Shown here piece after piece: positions 29,155 to 60,414 of a stretch of DNA of 64,000 nucleotides. Under the pieces are notes generated by a model. That model worked only from the letters and a program-made list of their open reading frames with translations, ran no database searches and was not told where the DNA came from. Both the position numbers and the translations under genes were made by a program. Position 1 is the first letter of the stretch, and each line of letters begins with the position of its first letter. The stretch is from an uncultured cyanobacterium. GTDB lineage: Bacteria; Cyanobacteriota; Cyanobacteriia; CAKZMO01. The stretch covers positions 160,001 to 224,000 of the forward strand of contig CAVRCJ010000011.1 of assembly GCA_963719515.1 (NCBI GenBank). The letters run 5' to 3'.

Positions 29155-29364
29155 TGCAGCGCCCCGATCTTTAAAGATCACACCCTACACTTTAAACGCA
29201 GCACCCGATCTTTAAAGCGTGACCCCTCAACTCTCAAACGTAAGCCGCGATCTTTAAGGTGCGATCGCCCAACTCTCAAACGCAGCCCGCGATCTTTAAA
29301 AGCGGAGCCGTCGATCTTCAAAGATCGCCCCCAACAACTCAAATTGCCCCGCCCAACTTCAAAA
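29155..29364. repeat. degenerate 21-bp tandem array (10 units, 42-bp higher-order period)
   Basis: units end alternately in GATCTTTAAA-like and AACTCTCAAA-like motifs with exact 21-nt spacing. Confidence 0.8.
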
Positions 29365-29476
29365 ATTGCCCCGCCCCATCCAAAGCATCGCCAGCAACTT
29401 TCACCATCGCCCTCCCCCCAAACCAACCTCTAGAGCAAACCCCAACGCTCAAAACGCCAACCAAGACAAACCCTAA

Positions 29477-29578: not shown

Positions 29579-29607
29579 TTGCCATCCCAGCACAAATGGC
29601 CTATTCT
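29579..29607 (+). promoter_or_regulatory. sigma70-like promoter
   Basis: TTGCCA-17 nt-TATTCT. Confidence 0.55.
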
Positions 29608-29613
29608 CTTGAG

Positions 29614-29838
29614 CTAGAGCCGTGGTCCCCATGGCTTCAGTCTCCCAAGAATTCGGTCGGGCGGAGCTACTGGTTGTTCACAGCAACCCGTAGCCCCTAA
29701 GCCACCCAAACAGAGTAAGGCTGTCAGGATGACCTGAGGTTGATCATAAGAGATACCCGCGTCATTCCGAACCTCATAACGTCTGGAATGACCGGTTCCT
29801 GGGGGACTCCTAACCCAAAACATCAACAGGAGTCCCTC
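29614..29838 (+). promoter_or_regulatory. structured 5' leader ending in an SD-sequestering hairpin (copy A)
   Basis: hairpins GCTAC..GGTTG/CAACC..GTAGC and GTCATTCC/GGAATGAC; GGGACTCCT(29803-11)/AGGAGTCCC(29828-36) just before the ATG. Confidence 0.65.
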
Positions 29839-30213
29839 ATGTCATCTCAATATAATTCGCTGCCTCTTTCCCTAGAGGCGGCACAGCTCGCATTGGCACA
29901 GCACGCCGCCGAGCAATCTACTCGCCTGCCCTCCCCCACCGGCGGCGAGCCCCACATCCCCACCCTCGTCGAGCCCGCCCCCGCGCCAGGGTGCGTTGGT
30001 CCTTCAGGACCAGTCGAAGACTCACACCTGCGTCACATCATCATCGGCTCCCCCGAAGGCGTGCAGGAAGCGATCGCCCGCCTCCACATGCTGCACTACG
30101 TCGAGCGGCGCTACTGGACCCCGCCCATGCCCATCCGCGACCAAGGCCTGCGGATTACCCCAAATCTGGGGCAGGTCATGAGCTACCTGGTGCAGCAGCG
30201 ACCCCTGAGGTAG
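29839..30213 (+). CDS. hypothetical protein, LRHIIIGS..LH.L.Y...W..P..VM family (copy A)
   Basis: AGGAG SD; C-terminal motif shared with 57085-57423 and 51140-51292. Confidence 0.75.
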   Translation: MSSQYNSLPLSLEAAQLALAQHAAEQSTRLPSPTGGEPHIPTLVEPAPAPGCVGPSGPVEDSHLRHIIIGSPEGVQEAIARLHMLHYVERRYWTPPMPIRDQGLRITPNLGQVMSYLVQQRPLR

Positions 30214-30237: not shown

Positions 30238-30457
30238 GATACCGCTGGCGAATTTCATACCTTGCAACATTCGTGCTGTTTCACCCCTTAAAGAGGCCCC
30301 CCAGCCCCCAAGTTTGGGGGAGCAAGATTCGAAGTCAGAATTCTTGAAAGCATTTAATAGCAAGAGATCTGGCATTTTTCTGGTTCCCCCAGGATTGGGG
30401 GCGGAGGGGGCCAGCAAGACGCCAAATGCCATTACGAGATATTTCGCCAGCGGCATC
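30238..30457. mobile_element. MITE-like element, 220 bp, with terminal inverted repeats and an internal inverted pair of short dispersed repeats
   Basis: GATACCGCTGGCGAA / TTCGCCAGCGGCATC (14/15), TT flanks; internal GGCCCCCCAGCCCCCAAGTTTGGGGGAG and a similar inverse copy. Confidence 0.6.
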
Positions 30458-30692
30458 TTGGCAAGGGGGAGCTAGAGGGGGTCAGACCAACCTGTGTGTA
30501 CACCGTGGCTTACCAAGGGGGACGCCGGAGGCGGGAGTCTATCCAAAGCTGATAGCTGTCTATCTGCCCCCCTCAACCATCCGATCCTGATTCACCTAAA
30601 TATTGTCAATGTTAAGATCGCGGAGGGTTTCCCTCCGCAAAAGGAGTAGCGACCTATACTGGAATCCCCCGCAGCAACCGGGCCGAATCATC

Positions 30693-51139: not shown

Positions 51140-51292
51140 ATGTCCAACAATGCGGTGCGTTTGCTCTACGCCCGCCCCGACGAGTGGTCCGAGCCTATTC
51201 CGCTGAACGACACCGGCGGCATTCTGCGCGGCCTCACGCCCACCGACGTCATGCGCATCCTCACTAAGCGCATCCCGCTGCCGCCTCGCTAA
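51140..51292 (+). pseudogene. 3' fragment paralogous to 57085-57423 (copy C)
   Basis: YARPDEWSEPIPLNDTGGILRGLTPTDVMRILTKRIPLPPR vs YAHPSDWSQTLPLNNPDGVLRGLTPTDVMRILTKRISLPQR. Confidence 0.8.
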
Positions 51293-56900: not shown

Positions 56901-57084
56901 GGTACCGTTGCGAAGCAAACGTACCTCTCTAGCAATCGCGGTTGCGATCAATCGAGAAATTTGGGGCGATCGCCACGCTGACGCCTAGGGCAGTTGCCTT
57001 TCAGCAGAAGTCGGTGGCGATCGCGAAGCCAGTCGGGGCCTCATTGTGCCCTGGCTGGCTTCGTCTATTGGGCCCCCGAAGCGG

Positions 57085-57423
57085 CTAGTCGGAGCGCTGC
57101 GGTAGGGAGATGCGCTTGGTGAGGATGCGCATGACGTCTGTGGGGGTGAGGCCGCGCAGGACGCCGTCGGGGTTGTTCAGGGGCAGGGTCTGGGACCAAT
57201 CGCTGGGATGGGCGTAGCCGAGCTGATGCAGCCGGTCACGGCAGTTGTTGACGGCGTAGAGGGAGCCCACAGCGATGAGGCGCAGGGTGTTGAAGCTGGG
57301 GGTGCGGCCTTTGTCTTCGAGCAGGTAGTCGCCGGTTCTAGGATCGATGTCGAGGGCATTTTGGTGGGCGGCCAAGGCGACGTTGTGGCCTGCGTTGAGC
57401 TGGCCGGAAGGATTGTATGTCAT
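57085..57423 (-). CDS. hypothetical protein, same family as 29839-30213 (copy B)
   Basis: LRLIAVGS..AV....RLHQLGYA...WS...VMRILTKR; AGGAG SD. Confidence 0.8.
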   Translation of the reverse strand: MTYNPSGQLNAGHNVALAAHQNALDIDPRTGDYLLEDKGRTPSFNTLRLIAVGSLYAVNNCRDRLHQLGYAHPSDWSQTLPLNNPDGVLRGLTPTDVMRILTKRISLPQRSD

Positions 57424-57638
57424 TTGAGGGTTGTCTCCTTTCGTGGGTTAGGAAAGACAACCCAAACGTTTAGCCACCCCGCGAATATGGCGAGGTGGCT
57501 ACCCTGGGATAAAATCCCTGTAGCTCTCGCTGGTTGTCTCAGCGGGGGTTAGTCGTCTGGAAGTGGTGGTAACACGACCAGGCGGCGCTAAATATTTGGG
57601 GTGTCGGAGTTAGGACAGCGTGTGATTTGCGTCCATGG
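57424..57638 (-). promoter_or_regulatory. structured 5' leader ending in an SD-sequestering hairpin (copy B)
   Basis: TAGCCACC/GGTGGCTA stem; GGGTTGTCT...CCTAACCC...AGGAGACAACCC hairpin 4 nt before the ATG. Confidence 0.65.
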
Positions 57639-57644
57639 CTTGGC

Positions 57645-57673
57645 ATGATAGCGGAGTTTTAGCGCGATCGCAA
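57645..57673 (-). promoter_or_regulatory. sigma70-like promoter
   Basis: TTGCGA-17 nt-TATCAT on the minus strand. Confidence 0.55.
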
Positions 57674-57753
57674 CCATAGGGTGGGAGAAAGTTGGCAAAA
57701 TATTTAGGGTGGCTGGAAGTTTCCTAAGTAGGAACTATATCGTATTTAGCTTC

Positions 57754-58200
57754 TTACCAAAGCTTTTCATCTACTGCCCTCGACCTCGCTTCCATTTGCC
57801 GTACTTTTTCTTCCATACGCTCAAAAGCTGTCATTACGTTGTCAGCCGCTGAATTCCGGGAATACATGTTTAAAGTGGTAAATGAATTTTTATCTTCTAA
57901 AATAGCTATGCTTGGCGCTAGCTTTTCTATTAATGCCGTCAATTCATCATATTGAGGCTTAAGCTCTTCTAAAGCCTTAGAAATCTCTCTTTTCTGAAAT
58001 AGAGCCTGCCGCGCTGTATGTTCATCTCCCCTTTGCAAAGCTACTTGCGCTCTCTGCTTTCATCTGCCAATTTCTAACTCTAACTGTTTGAATTTATTTT
58101 GATACCAAGCTTGGTGATCTATCAGCTTAGTAAGCGCTTGCTTTGCGTTTTGAGTAGTCACTTACATTTCTCCCATTGAAATACTCAGGGCGCTTGAGCA
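57754..58200 (-). pseudogene. PspA/IM30-like gene with in-frame stops
   Basis: EM*VTTQNAKQAL...EIGR*KQRAQVALQRGDEHTARQAL...AFERMEEKVRQMEARS. Confidence 0.75.
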
Positions 58201-58402
58201 ATTACCTGTCAACGCCCTATTTATCCTGTTGAAGTGCATTCGCGCTTATATTAGTGATAGCCTCAGCAGTCTATTTTGTTGCGGCAATTTTCCCATTTGA
58301 TGCTGACTTCAACCTGCTGTTTTAACTCGAATACAATCTCTGATGTCTATCTTTTTGTTCTAAGAAGCTGGTTTAGTAATTATAGTGGCAAATAGGTTTT
58401 GA

Positions 58403-58957
58403 TCACAAAGCCCAATCGGGCGCTGAGCCCAGACAAACCATTCTATGCAATGCGTATCCACCCATCTCAGCATTACTCGGGAAGCCGACATCTCCTCGGA
58501 TTACTACCTCATAACCATTTTCGTTGACGACTGAACCGGAAATCCCGTCACTACAATGGACATCTTTAACTGACTCTTCAATGACCGCACCTTCAGGATC
58601 ATCGTAAATCGTTCTGACTTGAACTCTGTAGCGCTGATACATTCCTGTAGGACGATCTTCCACCAATTCTGAAGCTGTAATTCTAGAGGACCAAGCGCCA
58701 TTATCTCGCCAGGACTGCCAGTAGAGAATTGTTTCAGAGTCAGGGCGAGCAATAGAATCTCTAGGGATATCTGCAATTAGCTCAGAGTACCCATCCTGTG
58801 TCAAGTCTAAATCGTTGGCTAAAATAGTGCTCGATATCTGAGCAGTCTGCGCAAAGCTTGATTTTCCTACGCCTAAGAAGACACCTAAAACGGCGATAGA
58901 AATAGCCAAATTTCTACCCCAAAAAACTATCTGAAAACTATTCTTCCTTGCCATCAT
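58403..58957 (-). CDS. hypothetical exported protein
   Basis: basic N-terminus, hydrophobic core, SFA cleavage-like site; start overlaps the upstream stop. Confidence 0.65.
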   Translation of the reverse strand: MMARKNSFQIVFWGRNLAISIAVLGVFLGVGKSSFAQTAQISSTILANDLDLTQDGYSELIADIPRDSIARPDSETILYWQSWRDNGAWSSRITASELVEDRPTGMYQRYRVQVRTIYDDPEGAVIEESVKDVHCSDGISGSVVNENGYEVVIRGDVGFPSNAEMGGYALHRMVCLGSAPDWAL

Positions 58958-59247
58958 ACTAATCCATAGCTCTCAAGCAATGCTCTCAACTCATCCTTAT
59001 TCAGTCTTGAGTAACCTTTTAACCCATGCTGCTTAGCGACTACAAACATGTCTACTTTCTTCATATCTCTAGACCCAACTCGTTTTGAATAGTATGAGAT
59101 TGGCCCTGGCAAATTAGCATGCACTTTTCCAGTTCTAGAGTTCCAACTGATAGGGCCTGCCTTTATGCTTGTTGAGATACCAGACTTTGAGAGATTCACG
59201 GATAAACCAGGAAACAGCGTTATCTTTTTTCTAAATCTAAAATTCAT
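58954..59247 (-). CDS. DUF4236 domain fused to Rho-N-like helical domain
   Basis: FRFRKKITLFPGLSVNLSKSGISTS (DUF4236) and AKQHGLKGYSRLNKDELRALL (Rho_N-like). Confidence 0.8.
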   Translation of the reverse strand: MNFRFRKKITLFPGLSVNLSKSGISTSIKAGPISWNSRTGKVHANLPGPISYYSKRVGSRDMKKVDMFVVAKQHGLKGYSRLNKDELRALLESYGLV

Positions 59248-59467
59248 GGCATCCTAAAGAAACTAGAGCGTTGACTCAATTATCTTCTTGCGCAACAATC
59301 GCGTTCTTAAGGTGCTTAAGGCTTTATAGTAAATTTAAGTTTTCATGAATAAGCCCCCCCGGATTTCGAAAACTTCCGGGCTAGCTATATTTTTACAAAA
59401 GGCGCAAGTAATATTGCTATTTAGAACTGCTTGAGAATTATTGTGTTCGCTCAGGCGATCGCCGCGC

Positions 59468-59971
59468 TTAACTCCATCCATCGACCCGTAGATTGTTAGA
59501 GTTGACCGTATCAACACCCTGATTTTGAAGATATGCCGCTAGCTTTAGGTCATCCGTTAAAACGAGATACTGACCTTGAGCGACCTCAAAAATACTGCAG
59601 TCCGTCAATCCAAAACGAGAAAATTTCTCATTTTTTGAGATGATCTCGCTTTGGCTATAATGCTCGCTGAATTGGCTAAGAAGCTGAGAAAAAACCACGA
59701 GGCACTGCGATCGCTCTGGCTCACCCAACTGATTGATCAAGCTATTGACTTCCGTTAAGATATTCGGCGTTGTCACAATCTCATCTCGAAACGCTAACAG
59801 AAGGTCGCACAACAAAGTATAGTCGTCAACATTAAAGCTGTTGGTCCGCTTGAATCGAGATATCCGACTTGGATTTACAGCTCCAACAAAATAGAGCAGC
59901 AAAATATTTGTATCGATTAAAATACCTTTGCGCCGATACTTATTCAAAAGCTCTGCTGCATAGCTGTTCAT
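59468..59971 (-). CDS. PIN domain protein (putative RNase toxin)
   Basis: ILIDTNILLL, TTPNILTEV, FGLTDCSI, VLTDD. Confidence 0.85.
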   Translation of the reverse strand: MNSYAAELLNKYRRKGILIDTNILLLYFVGAVNPSRISRFKRTNSFNVDDYTLLCDLLLAFRDEIVTTPNILTEVNSLINQLGEPERSQCLVVFSQLLSQFSEHYSQSEIISKNEKFSRFGLTDCSIFEVAQGQYLVLTDDLKLAAYLQNQGVDTVNSNNLRVDGWS

Positions 59972-60282
59972 ACCTGCCGAATCTTCATCGATTCGATCTT
60001 GCCCGTTGAGGCATTCACAGCGAAAAGCTTATATTCCCGCTTAAATCCGCGAGGTGCATTAATCGACTGCATCATCTCATCAAGAGCAGACTTGCGCTTA
60101 ACTGGCACATCATACCCTAGCGTAACCAGCCAGGTTTTCTCATCTTCAGACAGCTCAACCTCTTCCAGCCTTAGATCATCAAGATCGCTGCCCATCAAAT
60201 CTTGAAGCTCTCGAACATAGTGATAGGCGGACTTTACAGCCGTTTTTACGTCTTTGATATCCAGCGTCGTTTCATCTAACAT
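59968..60282 (-). CDS. hypothetical protein coupled to the PIN gene (putative antitoxin)
   Basis: ATGA overlap with the PIN gene; LRLEEVELSED...WLVTLGY...REYKLF. Confidence 0.75.
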   Translation of the reverse strand: MLDETTLDIKDVKTAVKSAYHYVRELQDLMGSDLDDLRLEEVELSEDEKTWLVTLGYDVPVKRKSALDEMMQSINAPRGFKREYKLFAVNASTGKIESMKIRQV

Positions 60283-60414
60283 GGCTTTACTCAGAGGGTT
60301 CGGCTAGCTTTCATATCTAAGTATAAATCTCTTGAAAGGATGCCCTGCTGACCAAATACATTACCAGGCAAAAGGTAAATGCCATCAATGAAGCCGCCAG
60401 CATCACAGCCCCCA

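Follow-up and report, generated by a model that had tools for sequence, protein, structure and literature searches.

The described systems that come closest to the locus considered here are SymE/SymR, the RepX RNA of IncQ plasmids and timP/TimR, to which may be added the attenuation of plasmid rep genes. In the last of these (pT181, pIP501, IncI/IncB) an antisense RNA acting during transcription chooses between mutually exclusive folds, and its loops set an incompatibility-type specificity. According to those parts of PMC1891008 that deal with the locus, SymR (RF01809) is a cis-encoded two-hairpin antisense RNA with a GUUAG linker, its promoter in E. coli is situated inside the symE frame, mutation of its -10 box raises SymE more than sevenfold, and SymE modules (PF08845) multiply near mobile elements. 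The 75-nt antisense RNA of R1162 and RSF1010 (RepX, RF00043) has, in the sections of PMC8136791 that describe it, two stem-loops, a GUUA linker and a 3' tail without a U run, and it lies over both the start codon and the ribosome-binding site (RBS) of repA and determines the copy number of the plasmid. As far as the account in PMC13000454 goes, timP of enterobacteria has a leader of four stems with the Shine-Dalgarno sequence (SD) in the last stem, a competing long-range activator that acts without processing, a need for a pseudoknot, and an antitoxin RNA that binds upstream of the RBS. Within the phylum itself, the sole type I candidate found in the literature searched is msoT1/msoA1 of Microcystis aeruginosa, which its authors called in 2025 the first such system in cyanobacteria and whose MsoT1 has two predicted transmembrane helices, as reported in the relevant part of PMC12390103.

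The stretch of DNA analysed (the window) is 64 kb long and comes from an uncultured cyanobacterium. An initial annotation had placed on its minus strand a promoter, a leader with several stems, an SD-hiding hairpin and a small ORF, and each of these parts of what is here called copy B was recovered at its place. The promoter (57645..57673) consists of a -35 box TTGCGA (57673-57668), a 17-nt spacer and a -10 box TATCAT (57650-57645); it is the sole promoter-like site between 56900 and 57800, where 0.3 would be expected, its -35 box is overlapped by a HIP1 octamer (57664..57671), and its spacing suggests a transcription start near 57636. Along the minus strand, the leader then comprises a 5' hairpin seen in the predicted fold (H0, 57613..57634), the 5' strand of a long-range helix P1 (57587..57605), hairpin H1 (57552..57586) with a hypervariable loop (57572-57566) that is unique to each copy, a CTAACCC linker (57546..57552), hairpin H2 (57528..57544; variable loop 57539-57533), identified by covariation and loop divergence, hairpin H3 (TAGCCACC/GGTGGCTA, 57471..57501), identified by fold and covariation, the 3' strand of P1 (57456..57474), which overlaps both the base of H3 and the 5' arm of the next hairpin, and finally H4 (57428..57463), which hides the SD AGGAGA (57439-57434). 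The ORF (57085..57423, 112 aa) encodes a variable N-terminal arm and a conserved domain of about 65 aa, and beyond its stop codon lie a GC-rich hairpin (57025..57062, minus strand, not scored as a terminator) and a further HIP1 site (57017-57024). Leader B folds better than 200 of 200 shuffles (z -4.66) and H4 on its own reaches z -3.24; the possibility that H4 is a terminator was ruled out, as it has no U-tract. Copy B does border an AT-rich islet, as had been claimed, with 42% GC in 57700-60300 against 59% in the module. Directly upstream of the promoter, at the edge of the islet, is a broken pspA/vipp-like remnant (57754-58140, minus strand) with a weak PspA_IM30 match and an interrupted frame, and farther in an overlapping gene pair (59468-60282, minus strand) resembles a PIN-type toxin-antitoxin pair, with no Pfam match. 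The 167-aa gene of this pair has a homologue (L105:2638-2982) in a congener, where it lies some 1.1 kb away from the locus most closely related to copy B, the genes between the two differing from those in the window.

What had been taken for a two-copy module (A and B) is in fact a family of 65 full units in this genome, a full unit being a promoter, a leader of about 215 nt and an ORF of 80-170 aa. Copy A (approximately 29579..30213, plus strand; ORF of 124 aa at 29839-30213) has the same anatomy as copy B, and the proposed kinship of the two was borne out by a DNA profile seeded solely with leader B, which recovers copy A on iteration and converges at 73 matches, and by a covariance model built without copy A, which scores it at 120 bits (E 4e-31), close relatives of A being in that model. 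The 65 units are what remained when 67 of the 73 matches proved both long and strong enough to align and 2 were dropped (no adjacent ORF, or split); an iterated protein profile yields 79 domain matches in the 5.3-Mb genome, fragments included. A third copy in the window is a leaderless 3' (C-terminal) fragment (51140..51292, plus strand), 68% identical to B over 44 aa, lying 20 nt past a HIP1 site and ahead of a hairpin. Copy A is flanked by short repeats and a palindromic REP-like element (29160-29400 and 30260-30480), and similar repeats occur beside the congeneric relative of copy B (L105:550-729). Leader length varies between 206 and 234 nt (60 copies), mean leader identity among the 65 is 50%, a TTG-17/18-TAnnnT promoter lies upstream of 63, and the ORF is intact in at least 56, the 9 flagged as broken probably including some start-calling errors. 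There are also copies that are split or truncated within the leader (G000:C1:181038-182319, G000:C3:730342-730815 and G000:C11:319506-319900); two of the three keep the SD-proximal part and an intact ORF but have lost contact with the activating strand. With a covariance model of the leader, built from 34 of the 65 copies, matches were obtained in 18 of the 41 related genomes searched and, counting this one, in at least 40 of 141 genomes sampled across the class, often up to the scoring cap; at the loci outside this genome, the leader is followed by the family ORF in 30 of 31 and 17 of 18 cases. The protein is present in at least 52 of 401 genomes (13 candidates were scored in each) and on 13 plasmids, and its closest named homologues are labelled Elainellaceae; queries with leader B and one other leader found no long leader among PLSDB plasmids, and no relative of the family was confirmed in viral contigs or phage records. 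No description of the family was found in the literature searched, and the supplements of RNA-motif surveys or cyanobacterial start-site maps might hold the motif.

The suggestion that the leader is under structural selection is borne out. In an unfitted alignment of the 34 copies, H1, H2, H3 and P1 together show 229 double-sided changes, compared with 100 in shuffles and 49-79 in slid controls, and in H1 such changes affect 13 of 14 pairs; two further covariation measures were no better than in shuffled alignments, with 28 against 26 for the number of pairs showing double changes and 78 against 73 for pair types. P1 is 63% paired in that alignment because its register shifts there between clades. 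The SD-hiding hairpin is equally general, the SD region being paired in 59/65 copies, and a sequestered SD is a feature of the type I class. The comparison of leaders A and B held in part: their anatomy is the same and the first of the shared CTAA(C/G)CC motifs is conserved (26/65 copies by a strict definition, 54/65 by a relaxed one), but CTAACCC is found in the SD-hairpin loop of 3/65 copies, so that the agreement of A and B in the second motif is incidental. CTAACCC is not enriched in the window as a whole (7 found, 6.3 expected).

The minimum-energy fold of leader B pairs 57605-57587 with 57474-57456 (P1), the centroid fold shows H4, and the two are near-isoenergetic in this copy. As the 3' strand of P1 is the 5' arm of H4, the two helices are mutually exclusive. 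Cognate duplex energies and a swap test mark the 5' strand of P1 as an activator (anti-anti-SD) strand: cognate strands pair at a mean of -23.8 kcal/mol, as against -15.3 kcal/mol after swapping among partners less than 60% identical, a control segment giving -11.5 kcal/mol. Cognate pairing is the better in 65/65 copies of this genome and in 34/34 and 17/18 outside loci, the outside loci having been found with a model containing the P1 pairs and some of them being close kin. When transcripts ending just 5' of the SD were folded, at least 8 P1 pairs formed in 52/60 copies, against 3/60 with the strand shuffled (5 copies were skipped, their promoter or start being unclear), whereas at equilibrium and without antisense RNA H4 dominates most full-length leaders. 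P1 therefore appears to represent the ON state, formed early or as an alternative, and H4 the OFF state in which the leader comes to rest; in these models P1 lowers the cost of opening the SD and is predicted to form first in the nascent RNA.

The leader contains a further conserved signal, which reads on the opposite strand. It is an AnnnTA of the sense strand, situated between H2 and H3 at 6-8 nt from a conserved AG, and read as TAnnnT this antisense -10 (as TAAAAT, TACAAT, TATCAT, TATGAT or TAAGAT) is present in 51/65 copies, where 4.6 would be expected, and outside the genome in 22/34 loci (2.6 expected) and in 14/18 loci. The best hexamer reaches 5/6 matches to TATAAT in 51/65 copies on the antisense strand and in 4/65 on the sense strand. 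It is TAAAAT in copy B (57510..57515, plus strand), 6 nt ahead of the predicted +1 A, and TATGAT in copy A (29748-29743, antisense to that copy); no -35 box is conserved (TTG in 10/65) and no U-tract terminator was found for the antisense RNA. The RNA predicted for copy B (57522..57590, plus strand, with a 5' end probably at 57522 and a 3' end placed anywhere from 57590 to about 57610) would form two stem-loops like those of SymR and RepX (fold z -5.1) and contain the linker as GGGUUAG, and the corresponding fold z is below -2 in 65/65 copies. A two-hairpin antisense RNA of some 70-80 nt, starting from a promoter between H2 and H3, is accordingly what the sequence predicts.

Comparison with Rfam points in the same direction at scores below its cut-offs. 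In a close relative of copy B, positions 1-77 of the SymR model are matched from the predicted +1 (35.3 bits, E 0.0026), and the SymR matches in the genome number 3, all antisense to family leaders and all sub-threshold, the best scoring 38.9 bits against the 61-bit gathering score of RF01809; a true SymE locus scored only 44.1 bits on this model, so the cut-off is a strict one. Copy B itself has no SymR match at E up to 10, at which level Rfam returned just rli38 and hairpin-ribozyme chance matches over it, and at the gathering score there was no match in the 64-kb window; RF00043 had no match in this genome, and controls gave none either. The module had been put forward as undescribed, which is fair in that it lies below the Rfam gathering score and less so in that the 5' core of its leader resembles the SymR/R1162 antisense cassette.

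Set against SymE/SymR, what recurs here, so far as sequence can tell, is an antisense RNA that is encoded in cis, has two hairpins and a comparable length, and whose -10 box, in the sense direction, comes immediately after it, together with the GUUAG linker and a multicopy spread near mobile and defence genes, all features found in the pertinent parts of PMC1891008. What is absent is a SymE-family toxin, the 61-bit score and antisense overlap of the SD and start codon. The family protein is not an AbrB-fold SymE (no Pfam family, hhalign probability 0.1%, and a beta-alpha-beta-beta model), the predicted antisense RNA begins about 100 nt upstream of the start codon (+1 at 57522, start at 57423) whereas SymR lies over it, control would be indirect, through the competition of P1 and H4, and there are 65 copies here as against the at least 14 reported for Erwinia in that part of PMC1891008. 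From RepX, as PMC8136791 describes it in part, the family differs in having a chromosomal target upstream of the RBS, no RF00043 match and no downstream repA, the gene below the leader being almost always the family ORF in the outside loci. With timP/TimR it shares a leader of four stems, an SD concealed by the last of them, a long-range helix that competes with this stem, and the place of its predicted antisense RNA, upstream of the RBS. The two are compared in layout and not in sequence, for no homology is claimed, and TimP (PMC13000454) is a membrane toxin, unlike the soluble domain of the family protein. The msoT1/msoA1 pair is set apart by the transmembrane helices predicted for MsoT1 (PMC12390103), and it came to light by a different route. 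In plasmid rep attenuation the choice of folds is similar, but H4 is translational and not a terminator and the downstream gene is not a Rep. The module is thus not a member of SymE/SymR, but would work like SymE/SymR and timP/TimR. Another cyanobacterial case, pSYSA asRNA1/ssr7036, was rejected as a parallel, its layout being different and its RNA lying over the coding region.

The 5' core of the leader is found well beyond the family. A pattern of H1 plus CTAACC gave 30 matches in named genomes, 4 of them cyanobacterial copies; 9 more, judged by eye, have the same core followed by a start-codon context, mostly with an A run 5' of H1 and AnnnTA after ATGGCT, and the remainder look like chance. 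In named genomes the core lies upstream of integrases, a resolvase and a Mor-like gene, several of these loci score on SymR or R1162 RNA, and in Methylomonas-type loci the core reaches 37-43 bits on RF00043. In viral contigs, a hairpin of -12 kcal/mol or lower stands directly upstream of CTAACC..ATGGCT..AWTNTA in 62/78 testable pattern matches, compared with 3/78 controls, and the 28 proteins scanned downstream of the viral core comprise 2 SymE, 7 HNH, 1 GIY-YIG, 2 Cpn10, 1 Ash, 1 T5orf172 and 14 unassigned, SymE genes being preceded by the core in 2 contigs. The core loci recorded are L186-L265 from viruses and L054, L057, L063, L066, L067, L070, L074, L079 and L081, and a Cys-rich small protein was noticed among the genes behind the core. 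The hairpin-CTAACC-ATGGCT-AnnnTA core is probably one clan with SymR and RepX that falls below the Rfam cut-offs. ATGGCT is kept in 3/65 family leaders, as a 9-codon mini-ORF. Our inference is that the family arose from a SymR/RepX-type cassette by loss of the start codon and addition of H3, H4 and P1, a change that, by analogy with timP, may have moved control from direct blocking to a fold switch. Coupling through a leader peptide was considered and dropped (start codon in 3/65, with stops far from the main ORF). The a1b1-a2b2 repeat layout known from c4/ash was likewise dropped, since the second CTAACC is not conserved.

For the protein itself, AlphaFold gives a confident beta-alpha-beta-beta domain (pLDDT 89) with one 13-residue helix, and the ORF is under purifying selection, 149/1228 second codon positions differing as against 167/522 four-fold sites. 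Pfam returned no families for 60 members; NCBIfam, PHROGs, PADLOC and PDB sequences gave no match, apart from one member that hit an unrelated NCBIfam repeat model, and a protein atlas yielded unnamed cyanobacterial clusters below 0.9 and no named match. Fold searches, in which dodecin, ferredoxin-like folds and MinE were compared, reached a best Z of 4.2 with the domain and 5.5 with a natural tandem form, and Foldseek found nothing with E below 0.001 for either. There is no recognisable catalytic motif, nuclease, recombinase or DNA-binding fold in the domain, nor any likeness to SymE in PF08845 or in hhalign with a SymE homologue. As modelled, a 112-aa ORF with a soluble alpha/beta domain is unlike the hydrophobic transmembrane peptides of <60 aa that are usual in type I systems, and SymE and RalR are known soluble exceptions. 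A Leptolyngbya homologue (P0064) carries two domains in tandem, hinting at function as a dimer. Two other settings of the protein were seen. In one, judged by eye and met also in annotated cases, the family gene diverges from a small helix-turn-helix-like gene and palindromic operator-like repeats separate the two, apparently a protein-repressed version (L026, L028, L034, L041, L046, L047 and L050, with two divergent copies of this type in the genome studied, G000:C14:59752-60045 and G000:C5:122426-122716); in the other, a short leader has one HIP1-containing hairpin between promoter and SD (L031-L033, L035, L036, L038, L039, L042, L043 and L053). These settings suggest that the protein is usually kept tightly repressed, which fits a toxin or an entry-induced factor.

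The units are discrete and have moved as such. The closest congener relative of copy B matches exactly 57101-57693 and has other flanks, two congeners have no unit beside the same core gene, and close paralogues share blocks of 0.5-0.9 kb in unrelated flanks, with no transposase of their own. Inspection by eye of the ends of the 65 units and of 15 pairs revealed neither inverted repeats nor target duplications. Some block junctions are at HIP1, a HIP1 site lies within 100 nt upstream of 36/65 copies (11-15% in controls), and a flank below 50% GC accompanies 28% of copies against 8% of random sites. A transposase, PIN, Uma2, TIR/Roc, methylase, Fic or similar gene is a neighbour at 23/36 surveyed loci, a figure that stands by itself with no random-site control. 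Copies directly beside Photo_RC photosystem reaction-centre genes were also seen (L003:3-830, L004:340-1398 and L118:937-1995), two of the three neighbours being 353 aa long and likely psbD copies.

Computation supports well, and we would put considerable confidence in, an antisense-controlled switch. The sense promoter would make the leader of about 215 nt, in which the 5' strand of P1 could capture the 5' arm of the SD hairpin while the SD itself is still to be transcribed, so that nascent or refolded RNA with P1 would be translatable. From the opposite-strand promoter the short two-hairpin RNA would be made; its contact with the leader of the same copy would be made by the H1 and H2 loops, with pairing over H2-H1, and a rigid duplex, or its cleavage, may separate the 5' strand of P1 from its partner and allow H4 to close. 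RNase III is the probable cleaver of such a duplex. When the region covered by the antisense RNA is masked as far as the P1 strand, opening the SD costs 10.5 instead of 7.4 kcal/mol (the cost rises in 49/60 copies and falls in 1/60; in copy B the effect is small, 8.1 to 10.0 kcal/mol); masking H1-H2 alone is weaker (up in 30/60, down in 5/60), and the model therefore needs read-through, sterics or cleavage. Unique loops would give every copy a private lock, dozens could coexist, and a new copy would be independent of the rest. The protein would most likely be growth-inhibiting once the lock is lost. Our main reading, to which we give a probability of roughly 0.55, accordingly sees in the unit of about 600 bp a self-contained gene under an antisense lock, with the behaviour of a type I toxin-antitoxin (addiction) module. 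Against addiction speaks the presence of the core upstream of genes that are not toxins, integrases and Cpn10 among them.

That last observation is also the starting point of the most serious alternative, in which the antisense switch is the same but the protein is an establishment or mobility factor, produced in a burst on entry into a cell without the cognate antisense RNA (zygotic induction) and aiding integration of the unit or islet or escape from restriction. The company that the core keeps (integrases, a resolvase, a Mor-like activator, HNH and GIY-YIG nucleases) suits this idea, as do the movement of 0.5-0.9-kb blocks with no transposase of their own and with HIP1 upstream in 36/65, the early ON window that P1 favours, and the control of a replication protein by RepX in the relevant sections of PMC8136791. 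It has to contend with a domain that has no recognisable nuclease, recombinase or DNA-binding fold, with ends at which neither inverted repeats nor target duplications were seen by eye, and with the failure to confirm a related locus in viral contigs or phage records, and we consider it rather unlikely, though it deserves to be kept in mind.

The addiction reading and the establishment factor both require an antisense RNA, and the loops speak to this point. In 20 disjoint closest paralogue pairs, mismatches affect 167/522 of the four-fold synonymous sites but 78/140 positions of the H1 loop and 60/140 of the H2 loop (Fisher p 4e-7 and 0.02 for the two loops, values that ignore residual relatedness, the pairs not being fully independent), while the figures are 43/247 for the H3 loop, 81/270 for the H4 loop and 2-12% for stems; the H1 loops are all distinct (65/65). 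Such a rate, above that of neutral sites, is in line with selection for novel antisense specificities, and it speaks against an aptamer for a ligand, which should conserve its loops. It is improbable that the leader is a switch that responds to a ligand, a protein or temperature with no antisense RNA involved, the AU-rich hexamer being an RNase E or ribosome standby site. Such a switch would be in keeping with the near-equal energies of P1 and H4 in copy B, with a hexamer that is single-stranded and AU-rich on the sense strand, and with the missing -35 box and terminator, but what the hexamer preserves, while its middle varies, is precisely the -11 A and -7 T of an opposite-strand -10, and the SymR matches are on the opposite strand.

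The initial annotation had raised the possibility that a GGGTTAG-containing RNA, or the encoded protein, unlocks translation. This now looks very improbable. H4 dominates at equilibrium, which could mean that an activator is needed, and the CTAACCC motif recurs in the SD-hairpin loop of A and B; that loop motif, however, is confined to 3/65 copies, masking raised the SD-opening cost in 49/60 copies and lowered it in 1/60, and SymR and RepX both repress in the accounts that PMC1891008 and PMC8136791 give of them in part. The conserved antisense -10 and the private loops indicate that the GGGUUAG RNA is cis-encoded on the opposite strand and most likely locks translation, and the folding models point to the internal long-range helix P1 as the unlocking element in its place. 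Finally, the idea that the unit is a repeat in decay, or a mobile element that is not autonomous, and that its structure regulates nothing, prompted by the many dispersed copies, fragments and broken ORFs (9/65 flagged), can hardly be upheld and is already largely refuted by the compensatory changes, the purifying selection on the ORF, loops that outpace synonymous sites, and an anatomy conserved at 50% mean leader identity with the family ORF in 30/31 and 17/18 outside loci.

An antisense-locked addiction module of this kind would matter for several reasons. Type I systems are almost unknown in cyanobacteria, where the candidate of PMC12390103 is presented as the first. The 65 copies with unique loops are a natural experiment in the diversification of antisense specificity and a ready set of candidate orthogonal riboregulators, and the presence of the core before phage and mobile-element genes (62/78 vs 3/78) suggests that SymR and RepX are two members of a larger RNA family missed by Rfam cut-offs. 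A bolder and more tentative view, for which the odds seem to us a little less than even, is that this is a phylum-wide cyanobacterial type I superfamily with a new soluble toxin fold, its 65 copies insulated from each other by diversifying loops and its long-range switch grafted onto a SymR/RepX-like cassette that is itself an overlooked control element of phages and mobile elements. Being present in at least 40/141 genomes, often in many copies, the family could be the main antisense addiction system of filamentous cyanobacteria.
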